From: a virus
Strand: one strand, 5' to 3'
Virus genome (UHGV): UHGV-1340863
DNA length: 20,038 nucleotides
This document shows, in pieces, positions 2,592-20,038 of this stretch (position 1 is its first letter; the number at the start of each line of letters is the position of its first letter). The notes beneath the pieces are model-generated. The model saw only the letters and a program-made list of their open reading frames with translations. It was not told the origin of the DNA and searched no databases. The translations under genes and the position numbers were made by a program.

Positions 2592-2944
2592 AACACGATG
2601 ATATTCACCACACCGCTGGCGTTCAGCGCGTAGGCTTCGATATCGTCGGTCGGGTCATACGTGGACTTGTCACGCTTGCTCCACTCCGTGCCGCCGGACT
2701 GCGTGATGTTATTCTCCTCACTGCGGCCCATATCCACCTCAACCGGATCGAAGGCTTCACCGGTCATGGTGTATTTGCCCTTAAGCACGGCAGAAACTGC
2801 CTGCATCTCTTCGACCTGAGCAATGGCCAGCTCTTCGTCACGCATGTTCTGCATGATGATGCGACGGCGGCGGTAAGCCGGGTCCACCAGATTCTGCGGA
2901 TCTTCATCCGGCAGGCGACGCAGGGTCATCTGCGGATTCACTTC
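2592..2944 (-). pseudogene. E: Major capsid protein E, internal fragment (about codons 83-198), separated from its N-terminus by the inserted element
   Basis: Translation (E)VNPQMTLRRLPDEDPQNL...ITQSGGTEWSKRDKSTYDPTDDIEAYALNASGVVNIIV matches lambda gpE. No start codon (the track's M is GTG = Val in context); upstream in frame is element-derived P-K-H then TAA at 2954-2956. Confidence 0.9.
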
Positions 2945-2982
2945 ATGCTTGGGTTACATGAGTCAAATAGAAAAAAGATACT

Positions 2983-3010
2983 TGATTTAACAGAGATTTA
3001 TTTTATAAAT
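2983..3010 (+). promoter_or_regulatory. Candidate sigma70 promoter upstream of the TIR gene (TTGATT-N16-TATAAA)
   Basis: TTGATT at 2983-2988 and TATAAA at 3005-3010 with 16-nt spacing in an AT-rich leader. Pattern match only. Confidence 0.25.
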
Positions 3011-3031
3011 GAGAGGGTGCAGAATTACGTA

Positions 3032-3052
3032 GCAATACATGCTGCAATACAT
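3032..3052 (+). repeat. Direct repeat GCAATACAT x2 (candidate integrase arm-type sites, attL side)
   Basis: gcaatacat at 3032-3040 and 3044-3052; the same GCAATACA motif recurs at the other element end (13525-13561). Confidence 0.5.
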
Positions 3053-3162
3053 GGTTAGGGAAAAGCCTTCTTGGCATCGTACAAAAAACAAACCGAATTT
3101 TTTCTAACACAGCCAAGTAAAGCCTCCTTCACTTAATTAGTTAAATTATAAAGGAATATTCA

Positions 3163-4305
3163 ATGAAAATTTTTCTTGCTCATGCAAAAGAAGATGAAAC
3201 GATAACTGAAGAAATCTATGAAAGGCTAAAAAGTGGAGGATATTCCCCTTGGATGGATGTAAAAGATATACCCGCTGGCGTAAACTGGGATTATGAAATC
3301 CAAAAAAACTTCGCTAATTCAAACTTGATAATCCTTATCCTTAGCAAAGTGAGCACTCAGAAAAATGGTTATATTCGCCGCGAAATAAATGACGCCATTG
3401 ATAAACTAAAGTATTACAAACCAGATGATGTGTTCGTGATACCATTACTTATTGATGATTGCGAAGTACCCGCCTACATATCAAGCAAGCTCCAATTCAT
3501 TGATTTTAAGAGAAATGATGGTTGGGACATTTTATCTAGATCTTTAAGATTAGCAGCATCGCAACAAAAACTTGAAATATCTCAAGGTATCACTTATGGG
3601 CCATTTAACTTTAGCAGCGAGGTTTTCAAGGAAGAATATAACAAGATCCCAGGGCATGAAATTGAAATAGCATATCCAAGAATTGAAAGCCATACATTAC
3701 CGAAATCAGCAAAACTCATTAGTGATTACTTTTCAGGAAAAGCGGCTTTACATATTTTTTCTGAACGCACATCACTATGGCCAGGAACACCATATTGGGA
3801 TGAAGAATATAAACACACTTACACTAGTTCCTATAATGAAAGTTATAACATCTCATACTGTAACGAAAATGTCATGAGCATCCTTCATTCCGTACATTGG
3901 TATGGTGCGGGAGCAGCACACCCTAACAGTCATTTTGAAACTAGTAATTTCGTAATAACCAAGGATGACTACGCATACAAATTTAGTTTATGGGATGTAT
4001 TTACCGAAGGGAAAGAGCAAGAAGCGATTAATAAGATAAAACAAAAAATAATCTCTGAATCAGCTCGTGAATTTTGGGAGAAAACTGGTGAAAAACCAAG
4101 TGAGGACGACATTAGTACGTTTGCAACGGGTATCATGGATAGTAACTTAGACTCGTTCACAATAAATAGTGATGGATTTAGATTCCATTTTGCACCTTAC
4201 GAAATTCATGCATATGCTTTTGGTTCTTGGGAATTCTTTATCTCATTCTTTGAAGTAATAGACTTCCTTAAAGAGGATGGAATTTACTCTCTAATAAGGA
4301 GTTAA
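3163..4305 (+). CDS. TIR-domain protein (N-terminal TIR about 135 aa plus about 245-aa C-terminal domain of unknown function); candidate anti-phage NADase-type defence protein
   Basis: 380-aa ORF with AAGGAA Shine-Dalgarno 7 nt upstream of ATG. The N-terminus MKIFLAHAKEDE...GYSPWMDVKDIPAGVNWDYEIQKNFANSNLIILILSKVSTQKNGYIRREINDAIDK...DDVFVIPLLID has the bacterial TIR pattern, with a candidate catalytic Glu near residue 74 in YIRREI. Strongly AT-rich compared with its neighbours. I cannot assign the C-terminal domain by eye. Confidence 0.75.
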   Translation: MKIFLAHAKEDETITEEIYERLKSGGYSPWMDVKDIPAGVNWDYEIQKNFANSNLIILILSKVSTQKNGYIRREINDAIDKLKYYKPDDVFVIPLLIDDCEVPAYISSKLQFIDFKRNDGWDILSRSLRLAASQQKLEISQGITYGPFNFSSEVFKEEYNKIPGHEIEIAYPRIESHTLPKSAKLISDYFSGKAALHIFSERTSLWPGTPYWDEEYKHTYTSSYNESYNISYCNENVMSILHSVHWYGAGAAHPNSHFETSNFVITKDDYAYKFSLWDVFTEGKEQEAINKIKQKIISESAREFWEKTGEKPSEDDISTFATGIMDSNLDSFTINSDGFRFHFAPYEIHAYAFGSWEFFISFFEVIDFLKEDGIYSLIRS

Positions 4306-4314
4306 CATTTCAAT

Positions 4315-4337
4315 AAGCCTGAAATTTAATCAGGCTT
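4315..4337 (+). terminator. Hairpin downstream of the TIR gene (candidate intrinsic terminator)
   Basis: aagcctga (4315-4322) / tcaggctt (4330-4337) with a 7-nt loop, followed by an A/T-rich tail atatacatttcc; begins 10 nt after the TIR stop codon. Confidence 0.4.
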
Positions 4338-4659
4338 ATATACATTTCCTTATGATTAAATTATTGCTGTTCTTAAGCAAAGATGCAGCCAGAAGTAATT
4401 CCCCCTCAAGCTTGCTTGCACACATAAAGAACTGACACAAAACTCTGCTGTAAAGTTGTCTAGCCACACAGCAAAAAACATATGAAACTTTGTTATTCGC
4501 AAACTGCTTGCTCTATATTCCACCATCAAGGCGCATAAAGCAATTGCAATGGCGCAGAAGTAGGCCATAACTATGAAGTGAAGCTAGCGGCGCGTTATTG
4601 GCCGCTTCTGAATAGTGCCTGATTCAACTCAGGGATAAGATTTTTTCTGGTGATAGACC

Positions 4660-4850
4660 GCGACGGATGGCAACAAAACCAGAGAAAGGAAACGACAGAG
4701 GCCAAAAAGCCTGTTTTTAGCACCTGTCGTTTCCTTTCTTTTTAGGGGGTGTTTTTAATAAAAACATTAAGTTACGGCGAAGAAGAACGGAAACGCCTTA
4801 AACAGGAAAATTTTCACAAATAGCAAAAAACTGCGCGCCTGACGCCCCGT
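4660..4850 (-). other. Second, element-borne lambda-type cos site (cosB-like R/I-site region plus variant cosN-like sequence)
   Basis: 4674-4840 aligns by eye, same orientation, with the helper cosB at 19872-20038, differing at roughly 10 positions. The adjacent cgcgcctgacgccccgtaacg (4829-4849) resembles the lambda cosN region (GTTACG GGGCGGCGACCT CGCGGG, from memory) but is variant. Confidence 0.8.
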
Positions 4851-4903
4851 AACGTTCTGGATCGCCGGAAAGGACCCGCCAGCCAGAGCGGGCCCTAATT
4901 TCA

Positions 4904-5287
4904 TCAACCAATCAGCTTATAGCGACCATCCCGTGCATTGCGGCGTACACGCTCAATCTTGAGGCATAGCGCCGCATCTGGCTTTTTTGGGACAGGTACG
5001 CGGCAATATTCAGAAGCGCGAGGAATATTATTTATCCAGTCGATCACTTCACTTAAATACCAGGCCTTACGCCCTTCCGTAACCTGCACACGCTCCGGGA
5101 ACTCTCCACTAGCCTCAAGGTTTAGCAGTGTACGACGACTCAGGGTTGTAATTTCCATCACCTGATTCATATCAACAAGGCGCTCGCTTAAACACATTTT
5201 GTCAGCGATAGCTTTTAATTCCTCTACAGCTTGATTCGGGTACATCATTTCGGCAATTGGCTTAAGGTCATTGTAATCATTCTGCAT
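4904..5287 (-). CDS. AlpA/excisionase-family wHTH protein, cos-adjacent (function unknown; regulator or packaging-redirection candidate)
   Basis: 127-aa ORF with AAGGGGGA SD. The segment ITTLSRRTLLNLEASGEFPERVQVTEGRKAWYLSEVIDWINN has the AlpA/Xis-type HTH signature; the gene ends 54 nt from the element cos. Confidence 0.6.
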   Translation of the reverse strand: MQNDYNDLKPIAEMMYPNQAVEELKAIADKMCLSERLVDMNQVMEITTLSRRTLLNLEASGEFPERVQVTEGRKAWYLSEVIDWINNIPRASEYCRVPVPKKPDAALCLKIERVRRNARDGRYKLIG

Positions 5288-5298
5288 TGTATCCCCCT

Positions 5299-5640
5299 TT
5301 ACACACGAGCCAGCGGCTGAACAGAAATACCTGAGCCAACAAACGCTGCAACCTTTACTGACAGTTCTTTAACAGACTCAGGCCAGTTCAGAGCATCAAC
5401 ATTTAAGACACCTGTCTTATAGACCTGAGCCTGTGTTTTTTTCGCGGTGTCGATTTGTACAGCGGAAACATAAACCGCTTTACCTACGCTCGAACCATCC
5501 CATACCACCAGTGCACCTGTTGCATCTTCCTGCATCAGTGGCGTAAATGCAGGAATTACCCCTTTATTAGCTGAAAATATCCCCAGCGTAGTCACCAGTG
5601 CTTCAGTGCCAGCCATGAGTTCAGTGTAATGAGTAGCCAT
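5299..5640 (-). CDS. Head decoration protein, lambda gpD-like (element-encoded paralogue)
   Basis: 113 aa; TPLMQEDATGALVVWDGSS...YKTGVLNVDALNWPESVKELSVKVAAFVGSGISV aligns with lambda D ([19 protein letters not shown]...[34 protein letters not shown]). AAGGGGGAG SD; start 10 nt after the E-like gene stop. Confidence 0.8.
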   Translation of the reverse strand: MATHYTELMAGTEALVTTLGIFSANKGVIPAFTPLMQEDATGALVVWDGSSVGKAVYVSAVQIDTAKKTQAQVYKTGVLNVDALNWPESVKELSVKVAAFVGSGISVQPLARV

Positions 5641-5649
5641 TGCTCCCCC

Positions 5650-6690
5650 TTAGCCAATGCGAACGGTAACAAAACGATTGATGCGGGCCGGTATTGGCTG
5701 TGGTGCTGAATGTGTCTGCACATATTCAATAGCCGGATCACCAGGCACAATATAGTTTTTCGGTGCAAGTTCGGCTTTAGTCAGCCCCATTCGGATTAGC
5801 TCCGGATCCTGAATACCGCCATAGGCGACAATCCCCTGAAGAGCCGTATTGCCAAGCACCATCAAATCAGGATCAAGGAAATGTTTTTCTGTTCCGTCCT
5901 CGTCGGTATAACGCCCGCTGTAAACAACAATCGCAACATCGCCCATATACCCTTTAAAACTCACCGAATCACCAAGGTCTTTAAGGGCCGTTTCCAGTTC
6001 GGAATTAGAACCACGACGGGTATCCAGAGCCTCTTTTATCGCTCTGAATGAACGGTATTTCTTCCATACATTACCGCCCATAATGATAATATTAGTGACG
6101 CCCTCACTAAATTCTGCGTAGCTCTCAATATCATCATTTGGATCAAAAGTTTCTTTATCCTTACCTGACCACTCAGCACCGCCAGACTGAGTGATGATAT
6201 TTTGTGGTTTAATATTCCAGTCCAGCTCATAACGTTCAATACCATCGCCCTCAATGATATTTTTCCCCGTTGTGATTGCCTGAACAGCAAGCCATTCAAT
6301 ACGTGCACGAATAGCTTTAGCTTGATTTACAATCGCCTGTTTAACTTTAATATTACGCGCCCCAAAAGCATTGTATTGCTCAGGTGATACACCAGCAGGG
6401 CGCACAGCTAACTTATTTGGATCAATGCTGCTTTTCGGCTTCATATAGCCTGGACGAATTGTTTTTGATTCGTACCCTTCGTCACGTGAAACTTTACTAC
6501 CCACCATAGGAGAACAAAACGCTGCAATTGGGATATTTGGATCGTCGATTGTATCAAGAATAATATCGCGCGATTCAAACATTACCGAGCGAGTAAAAAA
6601 CAAACTGGTAAACAACGCATTTAGTTGTTTTTGTACATCTACAGCATTAACCACCTGTACAAGCTGAGTAGGCGAATATAAATCAACCAT
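5650..6690 (-). CDS. Major capsid protein, lambda gpE-like (element-encoded, diverged paralogue of the interrupted helper E)
   Basis: Aligns with lambda E along its whole length, e.g. NIITQSGGAEWSGKDKETFDPNDDIESYAEF vs NNITQSGGTEWSKRDKSTYDPTDDIEAYALN, and FRAIKEALDTRRGSNSELETALKDLG...GDVAIVVYSG vs FKAVKEKLDTRRGSNSELETAVKDLG...GDVAIVVYSG. Start set at ATG 6688-6690 (MVDLYSPTQL..., SD AGAGG) rather than the ORF-track start at 6864; 346 aa vs 341 for E. Confidence 0.85.
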   Translation of the reverse strand: MVDLYSPTQLVQVVNAVDVQKQLNALFTSLFFTRSVMFESRDIILDTIDDPNIPIAAFCSPMVGSKVSRDEGYESKTIRPGYMKPKSSIDPNKLAVRPAGVSPEQYNAFGARNIKVKQAIVNQAKAIRARIEWLAVQAITTGKNIIEGDGIERYELDWNIKPQNIITQSGGAEWSGKDKETFDPNDDIESYAEFSEGVTNIIIMGGNVWKKYRSFRAIKEALDTRRGSNSELETALKDLGDSVSFKGYMGDVAIVVYSGRYTDEDGTEKHFLDPDLMVLGNTALQGIVAYGGIQDPELIRMGLTKAELAPKNYIVPGDPAIEYVQTHSAPQPIPARINRFVTVRIG

Positions 6691-6864
6691 ACGCATCCTC
6701 TTTGCATTCATTAAAAATAATTGTGGATATATGCTATCACCGATATTTGTCATGCGAATACATGCAACCGAGTGCAATGTTGTATAAAGTTTTGGGGTGA
6801 CAACTTCAGTGCGGAAAATTAGTGTTAATATCTTCACTCCCTTTGGTCGGGATTTATGTAGCAT

Positions 6865-6899
6865 GCCGGAAAATTTATTTTTTCCGGCCTTTTTTTATT
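6865..6899 (+). terminator. Strong intrinsic-terminator-like hairpin, active in plus orientation
   Basis: gccggaaaa (6865-6873) / ttttccggc (6880-6888) stem followed by a run of T residues (6889-6899). On the minus strand the stem is not followed by a U-tract. Confidence 0.5.
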
Positions 6900-6907
6900 G
6901 GCAATAT

Positions 6908-7357
6908 TTAAAACGGGATATCATCTCCCCATTGCTCATTATCTCCCACTGGTGGCTGGCTTCCTTGCTGATCTGCCTGTTGTTTTGCTCTGTTCAGTGC
7001 GTCAGTAGCCTGCCCCTGTTGGCCTTTATTGCCGCCCGGTCGCACCGATCGCGCACTGATTACGCTGTCTGCGATAACCTGCCAGCCCTGCCGCGTTTCG
7101 CCGTTCTGTCCAGTCCACTGGCTCATCTGCATGTTACCCGCCACGCTCAGGAGTTCGCCTTTGTGATGCTTTGCCAGCGCGTCGGCTTGTCTGCCAAACG
7201 CCAGGACAGATAACCACATCGTCGCCTGACCGTCATCCGACTGACTGCAGGGCAGTGATACCGCCATACGCGCCAGCGTCATGGGGGTGCCCTTGCTGGT
7301 CTGTTTTGTCTGCGGGTCGTCCACCAACCGCCCGTAAACTGATATTTGCGCCGTCAT
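6908..7357 (-). CDS. ssb: Single-stranded DNA-binding protein (SSB)
   Basis: 149 aa; N-terminal OB-fold-like region (ISVYGRLVDDPQ..., WTGQNGETRQGWQVIADSV), Gly/Gln-rich linker and the hallmark acidic C-terminal tail ...WGDDIPF. GGAGAG SD; ATGA overlap with the upstream ORF. Confidence 0.8.
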   Translation of the reverse strand: MTAQISVYGRLVDDPQTKQTSKGTPMTLARMAVSLPCSQSDDGQATMWLSVLAFGRQADALAKHHKGELLSVAGNMQMSQWTGQNGETRQGWQVIADSVISARSVRPGGNKGQQGQATDALNRAKQQADQQGSQPPVGDNEQWGDDIPF

Positions 7358-7599
7358 GCTGCCTGCTCTCCGGACTTAATATTGATTGTTGTCACTTCCT
7401 CCGCTTCAGCAATCTCCCGTTCGGTCAGAGTGGCAAAGTTTGCAGCCGCCGTTGTCATGAATGCGCTAATCAGTTCGGGATGTGCTTTCGCGTATCCTTC
7501 CCCGGCGTTGCGGTCGATGATTTTTATCGACACCCTTAACCAGTGTTCCGTCAAATCAAGGGCGTGCGATTGTGATTTTTTTGTGTGCTTCGCTGTCAT
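7354..7599 (-). CDS. Hypothetical protein (81 aa), translationally coupled to ssb
   Basis: ORF between the iteron cluster and ssb; its stop overlaps the ssb start (ATGA). No recognisable motif; weak RBS. Confidence 0.45.
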   Translation of the reverse strand: MTAKHTKKSQSHALDLTEHWLRVSIKIIDRNAGEGYAKAHPELISAFMTTAAANFATLTEREIAEAEEVTTINIKSGEQAA

Positions 7600-7650
7600 A
7601 GGCTTTATCTCACAGCAGTAAATTAAAATTTTTGCGTTTTAACCCTTCAC

Positions 7651-7873
7651 CTGTTCACCTTTTGATATTTTCTCTTTTAATTCATAATGTTAATTGGTGA
7701 ACAGTTTCACAAAAACTATTCACCAACTGTTCACCACTGTTCACCCTTGAAGCTCAATAAACAATCAAAAAGGTGAACAGTGAATAGTTTGGTGAACAGT
7801 TCATAAATAACTGTTCACCCTATAATATACTGATATAAAAGATATTTATGACAGGGTGAACAGTGGTGAACAG
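7651..7873. repeat. Iteron cluster: at least 9 copies of GGTGAACAG/CTGTTCACC in both orientations; candidate satellite origin of replication
   Basis: Copies at 7651-7659, 7696-7704, 7727-7735, 7737-7745, 7772-7780, 7791-7799, 7811-7819, 7855-7863 and 7865-7873, embedded in AT-rich DNA immediately downstream of the replication-protein gene. Confidence 0.8.
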
Positions 7874-7886
7874 TTATTCCATAAGT

Positions 7887-9707
7887 TTAATTTTTGCTAT
7901 CGTCATTAGTGACCGATACACATGATGGCATCCAGTCTTCTGATTCCTCCGTCAGTGTCACGTTTGAACGCAAACCGTGCTTCGTTTTCCGTTTCATATA
8001 CTCCCTGCCATATTCCGCCATTGCCCCCGGCATATCTTTACCGAAGCGCGTCAGTGTTACAGGTTTACCAAACCCATGTGCCCTCATATAAGCCAGATAG
8101 GCATGATAGAGATACCTGCGTGGGCTGAATGGCACAATTTCAGCATTACCCACTAACAGGCCATCACACATTACCGATGCCATGAGATAGCCGCAGAAGT
8201 CCACCAGCGAATCCCCCTCTCGCTTTATCGCCAGTGCTTCTTCAGATTTCTGCTGCTCATATAACAGGCGTCTGGCTTCGTCCTGATCAGCAAACCGTGT
8301 AAGCAGATGGCGAATCACTACCGCCAGCTCACCTTCTATTTTTTCCGCCAGCATCGAATCGCGTTCGTTCTCCGGTACAACTTCCGAAAAATTGAATATC
8401 ACCCGACGACGTGAGATCCCCCCGCTGCGGTCACTGAATGACATGGCGTTATTGTTAACCGCCAGCACTACTGCCGGAATACGCGTTGAATAGGGGGCTT
8501 TGTGTTTCGGGTCAATTGCCACCTTGTCACCGCCTGTAATGGCCTTAATCCCTGCCCCATCACCAGCGTAGCGGGTCATATCCGGCATGATAATCAGCGA
8601 AAAGCCAACCACTAACGCACGTTCCCTTGCATCTTCCAGCGCCTTCATGCTTGCTGATACTGTATTAGCCTTACCCGCCAGCATGGTGCAAATCTCCGCC
8701 ATCACACTTTTACCACTTCCCCCCGGCCCTGTTACCTCAATGAATAACTGCCAGTCGTACCGGTTCGCCAGCACCATGAATAATGCCGCCAGTACGCGAT
8801 CTGCCTTGCGGTCATTCTCAGCCACCGAACGGCGCAACCACTTCCAGAAATTCGGCGCATGTGTTGCCAGCGTTTCCCCCTCTGCTGGTGGGCTGAAAGG
8901 TAATTCACTGGCAATTAACAACCAGTCGTTTTTGTTATGCTCCCGAAAGTTACCAGTTCTGGTATCAAATACCCCGTTACTGAATCCAATCAGGTTACGG
9001 GCTGTATTCCCCATTACAGGCAAACTTAACTTCATGGTATCTACCGCCGATTTAATAGCGTTCTGCGAATAGCTGATCTCCGCATCAATGAAAATCTGCG
9101 CCATAGCACGCTGTAACTCTTTATCCTGAACCGGCTCCCATACAACGCCGTTGTAATGATGAACGGTGTCAGAGTCGGCATTGATTGCCAGTTCGCCGCC
9201 GTAATGTGCAAGGAGAACTTCACCGCGCTGGCTGGCCCCCATCTGATTCAACGCCAAAGATGAAGCACGCTCGTCATTTTTGCGCTCAGCCTTCTTAACT
9301 GGCAGTTCAATCACCAGACTTTCCCCATGCTCCGCTTCAGCTTTTAGGCCGACAAGGCGCGGAGTCCAGTCTTCAGGCTCTCGATCAACAAAGCTACGGT
9401 AACAACGTGCTTCCTTTACGCCTGCAATAGCAAGTAATGTCGCAACCTTCGTCAGACTTTTCTCTGCAATCTTTCCGGCACGATAAACACGCACATAATG
9501 ACGGCCTTCATCGATAATTTGCATATCATCCAGGTTTTCCAGTTGTTCCGTACCCAGAATGACTGGTGGTGTATCATCTGCTGCAATATGCTTACCTGCC
9601 CATTCATTCCATTCTTTTGCATGGCTCCAGGCATCACTGCCAGCAAAAATGATGACTTCCGTCATTTTGTCGCGCGGTTGGTATTTTAAGTTCGGAGCAC
9701 GTTTCAT
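7887..9707 (-). CDS. Replication initiator: D5/P4-alpha-type SF3 helicase-primase (PICI Pri-Rep-like)
   Basis: 606 aa; Walker A motif VTGPGGSGKS with a downstream hydrophobic stretch ending in acidic residues (LIIMPDM); overall resemblance to the C-terminal NTPase of phage/plasmid primases. GGAGGT SD; ATGA overlap with the upstream small ORF; iterons directly downstream. Confidence 0.75.
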   Translation of the reverse strand: MKRAPNLKYQPRDKMTEVIIFAGSDAWSHAKEWNEWAGKHIAADDTPPVILGTEQLENLDDMQIIDEGRHYVRVYRAGKIAEKSLTKVATLLAIAGVKEARCYRSFVDREPEDWTPRLVGLKAEAEHGESLVIELPVKKAERKNDERASSLALNQMGASQRGEVLLAHYGGELAINADSDTVHHYNGVVWEPVQDKELQRAMAQIFIDAEISYSQNAIKSAVDTMKLSLPVMGNTARNLIGFSNGVFDTRTGNFREHNKNDWLLIASELPFSPPAEGETLATHAPNFWKWLRRSVAENDRKADRVLAALFMVLANRYDWQLFIEVTGPGGSGKSVMAEICTMLAGKANTVSASMKALEDARERALVVGFSLIIMPDMTRYAGDGAGIKAITGGDKVAIDPKHKAPYSTRIPAVVLAVNNNAMSFSDRSGGISRRRVIFNFSEVVPENERDSMLAEKIEGELAVVIRHLLTRFADQDEARRLLYEQQKSEEALAIKREGDSLVDFCGYLMASVMCDGLLVGNAEIVPFSPRRYLYHAYLAYMRAHGFGKPVTLTRFGKDMPGAMAEYGREYMKRKTKHGLRSNVTLTEESEDWMPSCVSVTNDDSKN

Positions 9708-9991
9708 TTGTTACCTCCGGCAACTAACATTGCCCGAATTTTACGGATATAGCCTGCGGCACGCCTCTGATTATCTGTCTTGCAATTTTTTACCAGAATG
9801 AAATCTCTTTCGAACTGCTGACGCGGCATAACACATTCAAAATCATAACCATCACGCAAATAAGAGACACGACGATCATCAACCGAAATAATCTTTACCC
9901 GATAGCCATAGCTGTCTTTGAAAATATCCCCAAGGCTGATTTTTGAATGAGTTTGACCGCTGGCAATAAAGCCAGAAAATTTATTTTTCAT
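9704..9991 (-). CDS. Hypothetical protein (95 aa), replication operon
   Basis: ORF in an operon-like array with stop/start overlap to the helicase-primase gene; no recognisable motif. Confidence 0.5.
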   Translation of the reverse strand: MKNKFSGFIASGQTHSKISLGDIFKDSYGYRVKIISVDDRRVSYLRDGYDFECVMPRQQFERDFILVKNCKTDNQRRAAGYIRKIRAMLVAGGNK

Positions 9992-9994
9992 TTT

Positions 9995-10219
9995 TTATTC
10001 TCCGGTATAGCTCTGGTCGTGTATTTTTATAGCTTCATCCAGCTCTTTGATGACAGGATCAAGTAACGTAATTAACGCTCCAGCTAAATTAGCATCCCGT
10101 TCATCGTGTTCCGCATTTGTTGTCCCATCAAGCCAGGTTGATAAGATTTCTCGCATATTTTTGCCACAAACGAGCGCGTTTTCAGCATGTGTCAGCACTT
10201 TAAAATAAAGATCATTCAT
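9995..10219 (-). CDS. Hypothetical protein (74 aa), replication operon
   Basis: Strong AGGAGGTG SD upstream of ATG at 10217-10219; overlaps the end of the upstream ORF by 8 nt. Confidence 0.5.
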   Translation of the reverse strand: MNDLYFKVLTHAENALVCGKNMREILSTWLDGTTNAEHDERDANLAGALITLLDPVIKELDEAIKIHDQSYTGE

Positions 10220-10577
10220 GGCACACCTCCTGACGAATACGGGCGGCGAATATCATCACGTAGCCAGTTGGGAATTGCTGGCGGGCTTCCTGTTCGCTGG
10301 CGGCCTCGATGTGTATTACGCGTGGTTGTGCGGTGCTCAGGGCGATAAAACGCCAGATGAAATTGTTTTCGCATTTCTGAATAAACAGCGTGTTTTCTTC
10401 ACGCCCTTTCCAGAAAGCCGCAGTATAGCCCATCTCCTTAACCATCTTGCGGGCATCAACCAGCGTGTCAGCGGCAACATGTACCGTAGTTGCTCCATCT
10501 GCCATGCGGTCGTGGTGTAGTGCCAGAAAGGTGTATATAAATTTAGGGTGAGTTTGGGTATGCTGTGTTCCAGCCAT
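10212..10577 (-). CDS. Hypothetical protein (121 aa), first gene of the leftward replication operon
   Basis: C-terminal 121 codons of the 304-aa track ORF, starting at ATG 10575-10577 (MAGTQHTQTH...) with a GAGGT SD. The long N-terminal extension in the track overlaps the operator region and the divergent gene and is rejected. Confidence 0.5.
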   Translation of the reverse strand: MAGTQHTQTHPKFIYTFLALHHDRMADGATTVHVAADTLVDARKMVKEMGYTAAFWKGREENTLFIQKCENNFIWRFIALSTAQPRVIHIEAASEQEARQQFPTGYVMIFAARIRQEVCHE

Positions 10578-10664
10578 AATCGTTACCTCGTTTAACGGTT
10601 TGGTTAGAAGCCCGGTTAGTGTTCGCGCACTGCCGGGTTTCGTCGTTTTTATGAATCGATCATT

Positions 10665-10766
10665 GTGAGATACATAGCGACCATGATGTGAGATATACAT
10701 TATATTGTGGTGATATACATTGCAAGTGTTTTTATATCTCACTTTTGTGTATAGTGATATACACAT
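10665..10766. promoter_or_regulatory. Operator-like repeat cluster (GTGAGATA(TA)CAT x5, one inverted) in a divergent promoter region
   Basis: gtgagatacat 10665-10675, gtgagatatacat 10688-10700, gtgatatacat 10710-10720, inverted tatatctcac 10733-10742, gtgatatacacat 10754-10766; lies between the divergent genes starting at 10577 (-) and 10786 (+). Confidence 0.6.
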
Positions 10767-10785
10767 AACAAATTGGTGATTAACT

Positions 10786-11088
10786 ATGTCTGTATACAAA
10801 AATGCAAAATCGCAAATGACAACGATCAGGGTTCCCCACGATGTTATGGAGGGCATGGAATCCGTAAAACTGGACGGCGAAAGCAACGCCGGATTCATAG
10901 TAACCGCCATGCGCGGTGAGATCGCCCGCCGCCAGGCAGAAGGAAGCGGAGAAAATCCCCTCGTGTCTTCACTGGATGCCTTAGCTAAGGTCGAACAAAT
11001 CGGCATCAAGGCAGCGGAGGAAATCGGGCAACTCGTAGCCGTCGCTCGTGAAGAACTCCAGCGGCGTAAAGCCAAAGAATCTGAATAA
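10786..11088 (+). CDS. Putative small DNA-binding regulator (possible ribbon-helix-helix fold), divergent from the replication operon
   Basis: 100-aa ORF with GGTGA SD; N-terminal TTIRVPHDVMEGMESV resembles an RHH beta-strand/helix start. Position next to the operator repeats fits a repressor or activator role. Fold assignment is a guess. Confidence 0.45.
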   Translation: MSVYKNAKSQMTTIRVPHDVMEGMESVKLDGESNAGFIVTAMRGEIARRQAEGSGENPLVSSLDALAKVEQIGIKAAEEIGQLVAVAREELQRRKAKESE

Positions 11089-11097
11089 TTACTATCA

Positions 11098-11124
11098 GCG
11101 CCGTGATGTGAGTAACTACGGCGC
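11098..11124 (+). terminator. Hairpin downstream of the regulator gene
   Basis: gcgccgt (11098-11104) / acggcgc (11118-11124) stem with 13-nt loop, 10 nt after the stop codon; the downstream tail is only moderately T-rich. Confidence 0.35.
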
Positions 11125-11438
11125 ATTGCTATGTAAATACTGGCAATAAACAGAAAAGGTAGTTCTACTCCGAATAATTTTATCTGACACTACTCCTGAA
11201 CTAACATGCGCTTATCTTACAGGATATAAATATAGATCCATAAAATCACGATTAAATAAAGTCGCTCCAAACATAAACCACACCCAACGCTTAACAAGAT
11301 AGCAACAAACAGATAAATAACTTGCAGAAATATTTATCGCAAGGATTATCATTATTAATTACAAATCACTTTACCAAGTCATTCCCCTCTCTTATCATAA
11401 AGAGAAAGTAATAAATAAGTTAAGGGAGTTAGAATACT

Positions 11439-11975
11439 ATGAATCTAAAAAAAATAGCCACAAACATAAAAAACAAGATAATAGAAACATTCAATAAACT
11501 TATATTAGAGGCATCTAAAACCCCCACACAAGATGAAATTAAAATACTTGAGAGAAGAAGTAAAAAGTTTAATTACTCCTTTTTCTCATACGCAGTCACA
11601 GGAGCCATAATGGTTTTTTGCTCTCAACCATTAATAAAATACGCAAACCCAATGCTTATTTTATTGAGTGGTCTGTTACTGTCTATCATCATTATCCTTC
11701 TCAGAATGATTTATATTTCACAAGCGAATGCATCATGGACAACCAAAAAACGTTCACATGTACTAGTTCATTTTCTTTCTGCATGTTTCATAGCGTCAAC
11801 ATTGACGTTGTTATATCAGGCTTACGATAATAACATCACACACAAATTGTACTGTAAAAATATACAACAACTTATTGAAAAAAGGATAGAAACAGAAAAA
11901 AATATCAGCATATTCAGTGGGATGCAATGCACCCCGGCATATGATTACTCTTTATTTGGATTTAATCTCTTATAA
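11439..11975 (+). CDS. AT-rich multi-pass membrane protein (178 aa), function unknown; cargo gene candidate
   Basis: Three hydrophobic helices (AVTGAIMVFCSQPLI, MLILLSGLLLSIIIILLRMIYI, VLVHFLSACFIASTLTLLYQAY); GGGAG SD upstream; strongly AT-rich island (about 11100-12040) flanked by GC-richer element genes. Confidence 0.6.
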   Translation: MNLKKIATNIKNKIIETFNKLILEASKTPTQDEIKILERRSKKFNYSFFSYAVTGAIMVFCSQPLIKYANPMLILLSGLLLSIIIILLRMIYISQANASWTTKKRSHVLVHFLSACFIASTLTLLYQAYDNNITHKLYCKNIQQLIEKRIETEKNISIFSGMQCTPAYDYSLFGFNLL

Positions 11976-12044
11976 AGAATGTTATTACTGATTTGAGTGC
12001 AAATTCTCAAATCAGTAATTCATAATATTTTATTCTGAGATAAT

Positions 12045-12272
12045 TTAAACTACCCACTCACCTCGAATCCATGCCTGCACTTCTGAAAGACGATATGCAA
12101 CAGCAGTGGAGCCAATCTTGATCCGCTTAGGAAATTTCCCTTCCTTCTCCAGCTTCCAGCGTGTGCTGTTCGCAAGAGTGGTTAGCTCCCGACATTCTTT
12201 CTCACGGATCATACGATCGATGTTAGGAATGTACTCCAGACCCTTTTTATCAACAATCGCCATTTTTTTCAT
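12045..12272 (-). CDS. AlpA-family HTH protein (excisionase / transcriptional activator candidate)
   Basis: 75 aa; LTTLANSTRWKLEKEGKFPKRIKIGSTAVAYRLSEVQAWIRGE matches the AlpA/Xis HTH pattern (..EGKFPKP.K.G.R...W...E.Q.WI); directly downstream of int. Confidence 0.75.
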   Translation of the reverse strand: MKKMAIVDKKGLEYIPNIDRMIREKECRELTTLANSTRWKLEKEGKFPKRIKIGSTAVAYRLSEVQAWIRGEWVV

Positions 12273-12273
12273 G

Positions 12274-13509
12274 TTAACCAGCCTTTTGTTTGAGGATTAT
12301 CACTTTTGAATCAGCACCTGCGATGCTATTGAGATATGTAGTCCAGAGTTCCAGAGCATCCAGTTTTTTAGCCATAAACTTACTCCGGTTGTAAACACCT
12401 GCCACGCCAGGTAGCGCATGGCCTAACAGTTGTTCTACTACATAAAATTCAACACCGAGATCACTTAGATGAGTAGATAGCGTTCTTCTAAGGTCGTGTA
12501 GTGACCATTGTTTTTCATGGCCCAAACGTTTACCGATTTTCCCCCCAATCTTGCTTACGCTTTCTCTAATTCGCAGACTTCCCAGCACATAACCAGTATG
12601 TTTTGTCTCTTCGTGAACATCCGTTACCCACTGTCGTAGAATTTCAGGTACTGGTCTGACGATTTCAACACCAGTTTTTGAGTGATCTTTTGGTACAGTC
12701 CAAACCCAACTTTCGAGATCCCATTCGCTCCATTCTGATAATCGGGCTTCACTCATTCGACATCCAAATACTGTACAAAGTACAAACATTTTTCGCGTGT
12801 ATTCAGACATTAGTTTTAAATCAGGCTCGACAAAAATTGCTTTCCAGAGCTGGCCCAGCTCGGCTTCATCCAGAACCCGATCCCGCTTACCTGCAATCTG
12901 CCCCACATCACTCATGCGCAAATCCTTTAAAGCATCACACGTCGCGTACTGGCGTACCCGACAAAAACGAAGAGCTAATTTAGTGTCAGAAAAAACATAC
13001 GCCGCCATAACTGGTGCATTACGTTTAATTCGGTCAAAACAGTCCAGCCATTCATATAGGTGAGTGTCATTTACAGGCAAATGACCGATATAGGGAAAAA
13101 TATGCTTTCGAAATCTGCCAAGCGTTACAGCATGAGTTTTACGACGCACCTTACAGTAATTTTCATACCAGTAATTTAGTGCATCCTCCACTGTGACCGG
13201 CTTTAAGCGTTCTTCAGCCTGAATCTTAATCTGGATACGCGGATCACGTTTGTCAGCCAACCAACCACGGCACTCGTCGCGCTTTTCCCTTGCCTGTTTG
13301 AGTGACATATCAGGATATTTACCCAACGTTAGCCAGACCGGAGCAGCCCGGCCACCTGCTAACCTGTAGAAGAAAACAAAGCTCACAGCCCCCTTGGTAC
13401 TCACACGAATAGAAAGCCCCTTTCCATCAGCAATGGTGATCTGCTTTTCTCTGGGTTTCCCCAGATATCCTTTAAGTGCTTTGTCGCTCAGTTTGTTCTC
13501 GCCAGCCAT
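12274..13509 (-). CDS. int: Tyrosine site-specific integrase (P4-type, N-terminal arm-binding domain)
   Basis: 411 aa from ATG 13507-13509 (MAGENKLSDK...); C-terminal catalytic region with HDLRRT and LLGH motifs plus a downstream Tyr; terminal gene of the element, beside the right junction. Confidence 0.88.
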   Translation of the reverse strand: MAGENKLSDKALKGYLGKPREKQITIADGKGLSIRVSTKGAVSFVFFYRLAGGRAAPVWLTLGKYPDMSLKQAREKRDECRGWLADKRDPRIQIKIQAEERLKPVTVEDALNYWYENYCKVRRKTHAVTLGRFRKHIFPYIGHLPVNDTHLYEWLDCFDRIKRNAPVMAAYVFSDTKLALRFCRVRQYATCDALKDLRMSDVGQIAGKRDRVLDEAELGQLWKAIFVEPDLKLMSEYTRKMFVLCTVFGCRMSEARLSEWSEWDLESWVWTVPKDHSKTGVEIVRPVPEILRQWVTDVHEETKHTGYVLGSLRIRESVSKIGGKIGKRLGHEKQWSLHDLRRTLSTHLSDLGVEFYVVEQLLGHALPGVAGVYNRSKFMAKKLDALELWTTYLNSIAGADSKVIILKQKAG

Positions 13510-13524
13510 TTTAAGCCCCAAAAA

Positions 13525-13561
13525 GCAATACAAGCTGCAATACAGAGATGATTGCAACACA
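13525..13561 (+). repeat. Direct repeats GCAATACA x2 plus GCAACACA (candidate integrase arm-type sites, attR side / int leader)
   Basis: gcaataca at 13525-13532 and 13537-13544, gcaacaca at 13554-13561; same motif and orientation as 3032-3052 at the opposite end. Confidence 0.5.
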
Positions 13562-13641
13562 CAGATAACGAGGAAAATCCAGTGAAAGCGCCAGATAGAC
13601 TTATTCTTTATTATCAAAAGATTAAGTGTAAAAACCAGCAA

Positions 13642-13917
13642 CTACACGAAAGCCTCAGAAAGCCATGCTAAGTGCTTCGGCTTGACATATCCCGGCGTAA
13701 ATTCAGAGGTGGAGCCGCCACGGGAACGGATAACCTCACCGGAAACAATCGGCGAAACGTACAGCGCCATGTTTACCAGTCCCGGAATTTGTGAGAGATA
13801 GACTTTCTCCGTGGTGAAGGGATAGCTCTCACGGAAAAAGAGACGCAGAAACAGCGGATCAAACTTAAATTTCTGCTCATTTGCCGCCAGCAGCTGGGCG
13901 GTTGTGTACATCGACAT
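13642..13917 (-). pseudogene. E: Major capsid protein E, N-terminal 82 codons fused to 9 element-derived codons and a stop
   Basis: MSMYTTAQLLAANEQKFKFDPLFLRLFFRESYPFTTEKVYLSQIPGLVNMALYVSPIVSGEVIRSRGGSTSEFTPGYVKPKH matches lambda E 1-82, then LAWLSEAFV-stop encoded by element sequence (13642-13671). Confidence 0.9.
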
Positions 13918-13972
13918 AAAAAAATCCCGTAAAAAAAGCCGCACAGGCGGCCTTTAGTGATGAAGGGTAAAG

Positions 13973-14305
13973 TTAAACGATGCTGATTGCCGTTCCGGCA
14001 AACGCGGTCCGTTTTTTCGTCTCGTCGCTGGCAGCCTCCGGCCAGAGCACATCCTCATAACGGAACGTGCCGGACTTGTAGAACGTCAGCGTGGTGCTGG
14101 TCTGGTCAGCAGCAACCGCAAGAATGCCAACGGCAGCACCGTCGGTGGTGCCATCCCACGCAACCAGCTTACGGCTGGAGGTGTCCAGCATCAGCGGGGT
14201 CATTGCAGGCGCTTTCGCACTCAATCCGCCGGGCGCGGTTGCGGTATGAGCCGGGTCACTGTTGCCCAGCGGCTGGTAATGGGTAAAGGTTTCTTTGCTC
14301 GTCAT
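13973..14305 (-). CDS. D: Head decoration protein D
   Basis: [12 protein letters not shown]...[11 protein letters not shown], 110 aa, matches lambda gpD; start taken at the internal ATG that reproduces the lambda N-terminus. Confidence 0.92.
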
Positions 14306-14314
14306 AAACATCCC

Positions 14315-19315: not shown

Positions 19316-19341
<26 letters not shown>

Positions 19342-19861
19342 TCAGCAACCCCGGTATCAGTTCATCCAGCGCGGCTGCTTTGTTCATGGCTTTGATGATA
19401 TCCCGTTTCAGGAAATCAACATGTCGGTTTTCCAGTTCCGGAAAACGCCGCTGCACCGACAGGGGGATCCCGTCGAGAATACTGGCAATTTCACCTGCGA
19501 TCCGCGACAGCACGAAAGTACAGAATGCGGTTTCCACCACTTCAGCGGAGTCTCTGGCATTTTTCAGCTCCTGTGCGTCGGCCTGCGCACGCGTAAGTCG
19601 ATGGCGTTCGTACTCAATAGTCCCTGGCTGGAGATCTGTCTCGCTGGCCTGTCGCAGTTCTTCAACCTCCCGGCGCAGCTTTTCGTTCTCAATTTCAGCA
19701 TCCCTTTCGGCATACCATTTTATGACGTCGGCAGAGTCATAAAGCACCTCATTACCCTTCCCACCGCCTCGCAGAACGGGCATTCCCTGCTCCTGCCAGT
19801 TCTGAATAGTACGGATACTCGCGCCGAAAATGTCAGCCAGCTGCTTTTTGTTGACTTCCAT
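19316..19861 (-). CDS. Nu1: Terminase small subunit Nu1
   Basis: 181 aa, MEVNKKQLADIFGASIRTIQNWQEQGMPVLRGGGKGNEVLYDS... matches lambda gpNu1, with the usual overlap into A. Confidence 0.93.
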
Positions 19862-20038
19862 TGTTCATTCCACGGACAAAAACAGAGAAAGGAAACGACA
19901 GAGGCCAAAAAGCCCGTTTTCAGCACCTGTCGTTTCCTTTCTTTTCAGGGAGTGTTTTAAATAAAAACATTAAGTTACGGCGAAGAAGAACGGAAACGCC
20001 TTAAACCGGAAAATTTTCATAAATAGCGAAAACCCGCG
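19862..20038 (-). other. Helper cosB region (Nu1-binding R sites and IHF site); window ends at the edge of cosN
   Basis: Reverse complement reads CGCGGGTTTTCGCTATTTATGAAAATTTTCCGGTTTAAGGCGTTTCCGTTCTTCTTCG...GAAAGGAAACGACAGG..., matching the left end of the lambda genome just after the 12-nt cohesive end GGGCGGCGACCT (from memory). Confidence 0.85.

Follow-up and report, generated by a model that had tools for sequence, protein, structure and literature searches.

Capsid and decoration homologues of an 11capE-type HE-PICI lodged in the E gene of a lambdoid helper prophage

EcCICFT073, the model Gram-negative PICI, carries a capsid gene and a head-decoration gene (c1499 and c1500) after its SSB gene (PMC6092414). 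Deletion of c1499 or c1500 changed neither the transfer of this satellite nor its interference with lambda, and when lambda was the helper all DNA that had been packaged was of phage size (PMC6092414). The origins of Gram-negative PICIs have been described on the 3' side of pri (PMC6092414). SaPIbov5 encodes Ccm, a paralogue of the helper major capsid protein for which size redirection is shown (as cited in PMC6092414), and the cf-PICIs make and fill capsids of their own, the helper giving only tails (10.1101/2022.09.08.507074). Tommasini, Mageeney and Williams (2023) described the helper-embedded phage-inducible chromosomal island (HE-PICI) Eco567.11capE, with E. coli NRG857c as type strain, at the site E:Phage_cap_E:80, where 201 instances of HE-PICI are known (PMC10111431). 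HE-PICIs have a signature at their attachment site, with doubled TGTATTGC motifs that are co-oriented and lie 81 +/- 2 upstream and 132 +/- 2 downstream of the attP centre (PMC10111431). After induction of NRG857c the composite excises and then replicates, and the satellite excises at 2-3 h in 42-98% of copies; attB reads show the rejoined E, and no virions, whether of 11capE or of the helper, were ever recovered (PMC10111431).

The stretch of DNA analysed here, called the window, comprises the 20,038 nucleotides of UHGV virus genome UHGV-1340863. It contains an integrative element of 10,727 bp (2946-13677) inside the E gene of a helper prophage, which is split between codons 82 and 83, and over the insert the GC content drops to 0.33-0.50 from about 0.57 in the helper sequence. 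The helper has a lambda-type late operon on the minus strand, with Nu1 (19316-19861), A, W, B, C and D (13973-14311) followed by the first 82 codons of E; past the insert, E resumes below about 2945 on the same strand and is followed by FI, FII, Z, U and V. A sequence-only reading had proposed that an integrative satellite splits the helper E and leaves B, C, D, W, A and Nu1 whole. Both points are borne out by the open reading frames, with 82 codons at 13699-13944 and the remainder from about 2945, and with Nu1, A, W, B, C and D all intact. The features that define the insertion are as follows.

13699..13944, minus strand: N-terminal 82 codons of helper E, from the ORF list and in-silico excision
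13673..13677, minus strand: attL crossover core AAGCA, where the 82-codon fragment of helper E ends
13525..13544, minus strand: doubled TGTATTGC arm motif of the attP P' arm, 131 nt from the core centre
12274..13509, minus strand: tyrosine integrase of the 11capE clade (Pfam Arm-DNA-bind_3 and Phage_integrase)
3032..3051, minus strand: doubled TGTATTGC arm motif of the attP P arm, 84 nt from the core centre
2946..2950, minus strand: attR crossover core AAGCA, below which helper E resumes from codon 83 onward
2592..2945, minus strand: visible part of the helper E C-terminal fragment, the remainder lying inside the N gap at 2492-2591

The crossover falls in helper E at ...GYVKPK|H..., so that E is truncated past codon 82 at the published site. 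The integrase differs from that of NRG857c 11capE by 11 nt and 2 aa over 1,236 nt, and it is from these differences that its clade was assigned. Both attP arms bear the doubled motif, and the offset of their distances (84 and 131) from the published values is within the uncertainty with which the centre is defined. The 10-bp block published for this site, AACCCAAGCA, was found again in NRG857c, and the helper allele of the window agrees with it at 8 of 10 positions. Exact identity between attL and attR extends here over only the 5 bp AAGCA (CCgAAGCAc against CCcAAGCAt, at 13669-13681 and 2942-2954). The exact block in this helper E allele thus measures 5 bp as against the 10-bp AACCCAAGCA of NRG857c, so that two mismatches to the published block were tolerated at integration. 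Since attP brings no replacement sequence, helper E should be off as long as the satellite is integrated. Precise excision in silico, carried out on the ungapped twin, restores an uninterrupted helper E of 341 aa.

The window is interrupted by a run of 100 N at 2492-2591, which corresponds to 513 bp in the closed twin genome TUM14697, 99.99-100% identical. Hidden by the gap are ~143 codons at the 3' end of helper E and the initial 15 of FI. It sits in the helper, outside the element, and leaves the E-like gene of the satellite untouched. The junction between the truncated E and int (E'|int) is found in 173 of 5,426 complete E. coli genomes, and because it recurs in this way the split arrangement is not an artefact.

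The open reading frames of the element encode an integrase, two AlpA-type HTH proteins, an Icd-like protein, a DUF4222 protein, a D5-type primase, an SSB, a TIR protein and the capsid pair. Their order is int, alpA, an Icd/YlcI zone, DUF4222, pri, the iterons of the origin, SSB, capsid, decoration, HTH, cos and cargo. The principal features are given below.

12045..12272, minus strand: AlpA, excisionase/activator (Pfam Phage_AlpA, 2.8e-15)
7887..9707, minus strand: D5/P4-type primase-helicase, Pri-Rep (Pfam D5_N, DUF5906, Pox_D5)
7650..7880, no strand: probable satellite origin, with about ten GGTGAACAGT iterons in both orientations, AT-rich, just 3' of pri
6908..7357, minus strand: SSB (Pfam SSB, 1.7e-16)
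5650..6690, minus strand: E-like major capsid homologue, 346 aa, WP_000228111.1 in the twin (Pfam Phage_cap_E, 1.4e-41, residues 12-343)
5299..5640, minus strand: D-like head decoration homologue, 113 aa (Pfam HDPD, 4.5e-15)
4904..5287, minus strand: AlpA-type HTH protein, 127 aa, always directly upstream of the satellite cos (Pfam Phage_AlpA, 7.5e-9; PDB 8C3T, 2.2e-9)
4673..4878, minus strand: satellite cos, 90-94% identical to the helper cos (window 19876-20038; 26284-26489 in TUM14697)
3163..4305, plus strand: TIR and DUF3298 protein, candidate anti-phage defence (Pfam TIR_2, 2.8e-21, and DUF3298, 1e-10; PADLOC Aga_TIR-type, 1.6e-17)

The iteron stretch at 7650-7880 is a probable satellite origin. 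Along with int, alpA and a pri-rep gene with the origin just 3', the element has the unidirectional genes and the size, within about 10-15 kb, of a Gram-negative PICI. As in other HE-PICIs, the satellite is co-oriented with the late gene that it interrupts: the minus strand carries int, alpA, pri and the capsid genes as well as the helper Nu1-A-W-B-C-D-E. A P4-like satellite was considered and set aside; the gene order agrees with that of EcCICFT073. With EcCICFT073 the element shares the order of its zones, the capsid and decoration pair and the character of a cos-type satellite of lambdoid helpers, but EcCICFT073 is chromosomal, beside phoQ, whereas the present element is inside a prophage. 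The regulatory zone holds a 178-aa hydrophobic hypothetical protein (11439-11975) and a YlcI/YnfO-family protein (10786-11088), both on the plus strand, opposite to most satellite genes, and neither of these two genes has a match among the PADLOC families. Nothing reached the gathering score in an Rfam scan of the element that included C4/isrK-type immunity RNAs.

The likeness to 11capE extends to the E site, the integrase clade, the attP arm motifs, the gene order, the position of cos and the co-orientation with the helper late genes. The primase differs by 1 aa from that of NRG857c 11capE, and one RefSeq accession covers the E-like protein of the twin genome, of NRG857c 11capE and of TUM1886. 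The sole substantial difference is the cargo, DUF262 and HEPN in NRG857c as against TIR and DUF3298 here. Judged by its sites and genes, the element represents one more copy of the 11capE HE-PICI already in the literature, differing in cargo, and not a new kind of system. The earlier suggestion that no such system had been described is thereby overturned: it was published as Eco567.11capE (PMC10111431), and the E/D pair had appeared before that in EcCICFT073 (PMC6092414).

The capsid pair itself is what the sequence-only reading had taken it to be, full-length paralogues of lambda E and D. Family membership extends over the full length of both proteins (Phage_cap_E and HDPD) and includes the solved gpE and gpD structures. 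Aligned over its full length, the E-like protein shows 41.8% identity with helper E, and it matches the structures PDB 3BQW (2.6e-121) and lambda gpE 7VI9 (2.3e-76); the D-like protein has 36.8% identity with helper D and matches the phage 21 SHP (PDB 1TD0, 4.7e-16). To their EcCICFT073 counterparts c1499 and c1500, the E-like and D-like proteins are 55% and 54% identical. PDB 3BQW appears to be the c1499 protein, since its residues aligned with the E-like protein are the same as those of c1499. With 3BQW at 55% identity and with lambda gpE 7VI9, the fold of the E-like protein can be regarded as already fixed by homology. Its gene has an ATG at 6690 preceded by an AAGAGGA ribosome-binding site, and a promoter scan of the region 5' of the E-like gene gave one weak match (9/12), not above shuffle expectation.

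Alignment with lambda gpE, the comparison called for by the sequence-only reading, shows that the E-like protein is collinear with it, with indels of just 1-4 residues and no domain-scale insertion or deletion. Many residues are invariant across the four E-family sequences aligned, among them G81-Y82, K84-P85-K86, R226-G227-S228 and G317-D318-P319. Nothing at this level suggests that the E-like protein would give a different head geometry. Compared with the NRG857c 11capE copy, the E-like gene has 8 synonymous and 0 non-synonymous nucleotide differences, and the protein is identical. From comparisons of this type, the cassette formed by the E-like, D-like and HTH genes and cos is conserved and under purifying selection, and the strict conservation of the pair argues for some function. 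Among 50,697 phage records no capsid is more than 60% identical to the E-like protein, the best being lambda E at 42%, and the best phage match of the D-like protein has 40% identity. With best matches this low, recent capture of E and D from a sequenced phage is ruled out. Since no sequenced phage capsid exceeds 60% identity to the E-like protein, the pair represents a long-standing satellite lineage.

Portal, protease and terminase are absent from the element, as the sequence-only reading had observed: a Pfam search of its open reading frames and the RefSeq annotation of the twin genome reveal none, and no scaffold or head-tail connector gene either. The element has in common with cf-PICIs a satellite-encoded HK97-fold capsid protein, but with capsid and decoration genes alone it is not a cf-PICI, and the proposed kinship with capsid-forming PICIs fails as to membership in that group.

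Directly downstream of the pair come the gene of the 127-aa HTH protein and the satellite cos. In about 50 IMG/VR PICIs the HTH gene ends 57 nt upstream of cosN. The N-terminal DNA-binding domain of Nu1 matches this protein weakly, with 31% identity over 48 aa (E 0.06), and the 127-aa HTH protein can be put forward as a candidate cos-specificity factor. In EcCICFT073 the PICI encodes RppA and its cosB differs from that of lambda (PMC6739421), whereas the present element lacks RppA and combines a cosB like that of its helper with a variant cosN. No tblastn match to RppA below E=0.01 occurs in the window, and the 127-aa HTH protein has no similarity to RppA. Packaging redirection based on RppA is ruled out by the absence of a homologue from the window, and the element thus departs from those Gram-negative PICIs in which an Rpp protein redirects the helper TerS to the PICI cos.

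At 4836-4847 the cohesive-end 12-mer of the satellite reads GGGCGTCAGGCG instead of the lambda and helper GGGCGGCGACCT, and the cosQ and cosB flanks are helper-like; the helper's own cosN lies just beyond the end of the window and was read from the twin TUM14697. The variant cosN also occurs in NRG857c 11capE; the positions given for it include one at about 4180 of L003. In at least three IMG/VR lambdoid contigs (L019, L055 and L067), GGGCGTCAGGCG is found directly upstream of Nu1 and gpA genes that are 99-100% identical to those of the helper. As the allele stands beside Nu1/gpA in these contigs, GGGCGTCAGGCG is a naturally occurring allele of cosN, one that the same type of terminase presumably cuts. 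It is probably functional, and a dead or decoy site is unlikely given lambdoid phages with 99-100% identical Nu1/gpA and the same allele. One more IMG/VR contig (L029) has GGGCGTCAGGCG in a matching cos flank and ends ahead of any gene.

The variable slot from cos to attR has its cargo on the opposite strand from most satellite genes. It is occupied by DUF262 and HEPN in NRG857c, by Abi and terS in TUM1886, and by TIR and DUF3298 in the window; to judge from these occupants, the slot looks like a defence hotspot. DUF2971 is also among the occupants in sister elements.

The cassette is not restricted to split E genes. The E-like/D-like pair is present in 395 of the 5,426 complete E. coli genomes, as against the 173 with the E'|int junction. 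Strain 504239 carries the block of E-like, D-like and HTH genes at 95-97% nucleotide identity in a chromosomal PICI at tRNA-Pro beside yejM, whose integrase is a different one and whose replicon is of the RepA type. Strain E41 carries the same block, again at 95-97% nucleotide identity, in an HE-PICI that lies inside the portal gene, and there helper E and D are intact. In both of these strains terS follows the cassette; the element in the window is without terS. About 50 IMG/VR PICI contigs have E-like, D-like, HTH and cosN at the fixed spacing of -1840, -790, -437 and 0; their primases are from 34% to 100% identical to the window primase and their integrases differ. Because the cassette also occurs in the tRNA-Pro and the portal-embedded PICIs, the pair is not tied to the breaking of E. 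As its genomic settings indicate, the cassette (E-like, D-like, HTH and cos) is one that moves among PICIs whose integrases, replicons and integration sites differ.

Very probably, then, the pair consists of late-zone E- and D-family homologues belonging to an 11capE-type HE-PICI in helper E, and the following excision-and-packaging cycle can be proposed. The satellite integrase inserted the element at codon 82/83 of a lambdoid helper E, in the same orientation as the late operon. After induction, satellite and helper would excise together as one composite and replicate, as they do in NRG857c. We infer that helper late transcription reads into int-alpA, an idea already in print, and the stretch from helper D/E' to int, which has no terminator-like site on the minus strand, is compatible with this. 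The satellite would then excise precisely and rejoin the 341-aa E, as happens in silico here and in the attB reads of NRG857c. Heads and tails would then be supplied by the helper, and the helper terminase would package the satellite via the satellite's own cos.

It is rather unlikely that the E-like and D-like proteins instead take the place of the helper shell, building heads, during the split of E or even later, with helper B, C/Nu3, W and FII that package the satellite and perhaps the composite DNA, a substitution that the 2023 authors raised as a possibility only (PMC10111431). In favour of such a role, the pair is full-length, collinear with lambda E and rich in residues invariant across the four aligned sequences, the E-like gene is under purifying selection, and the company of a cognate D-like protein points to a genuine lattice that has cementing sites of its own. 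However, the same pair accompanies an intact helper E in strain E41 and is not embedded at all in strain 504239, and at 42% identity to helper E the E-like protein may not fit the helper scaffold and portal. In NRG857c, moreover, E is restored by excision in 42-98% of copies at 2-3 h (PMC10111431). Judged by the sole genetic test, that of EcCICFT073, the pair was found dispensable for transfer and interference, transfer not being reduced by the deletion of c1499 or c1500 (PMC6092414).

We also consider unlikely a broader reading of the cassette, as a minimal satellite head-and-packaging module, with a cohesive-end allele of its own, in which the E-like and D-like proteins would mount a satellite-specific decorated shell on the helper portal, scaffold and protease and the HTH protein would steer the helper terminase to the satellite cos. 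It is very unlikely that the E-like protein acts as Ccm does, joining helper E in the shell or taking its place, so that the heads come out small or aberrant and shut out the roughly 50-kb helper to the advantage of the 10.7-kb satellite. In size the satellite genome is about one-fifth of the helper genome, the small heads made with the SaPIbov5 capsid homologue are a precedent, and the same is suspected for PmCI172 (PMC6092414). Size redirection, shown for Ccm, was nevertheless not seen for EcCICFT073, the closest tested relative of the pair, which yielded phage-sized DNA only with lambda and whose interference was unrelieved by deletion of c1499/c1500 (PMC6092414); nor does the E-like protein differ from lambda E by any insertion or deletion on the scale of a domain. 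That the locus is an inert remnant or an assembly artefact, left by the decay of a prophage or by faulty scaffolding near the N gap, is scarcely credible: the window does come from a gapped draft, and truncated-looking helpers are common among HE-PICIs (PMC10111431), but the arrangement recurs in a closed genome that is 99.99-100% identical, 173 complete genomes have the junction in common, and all the satellite genes, outside the gap, are intact and conserved.

An 11capE-type satellite with an excision-and-packaging cycle thus remains the preferred reading of the locus. Such a satellite keeps the helper capsid gene hostage and frees it by excision, a picture published in 2023, including the remark that the satellite "bears its own capsid gene". 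To this the window adds a TIR cargo variant, the travel of the cassette independently of E disruption, and the cosN allele, and the known picture is unchanged. If the cassette were nonetheless a head-and-packaging module, it would mark a halfway stage from classical PICIs to capsid-forming PICIs, and the heads of an E-embedded satellite could form ahead of the restoration of helper E.
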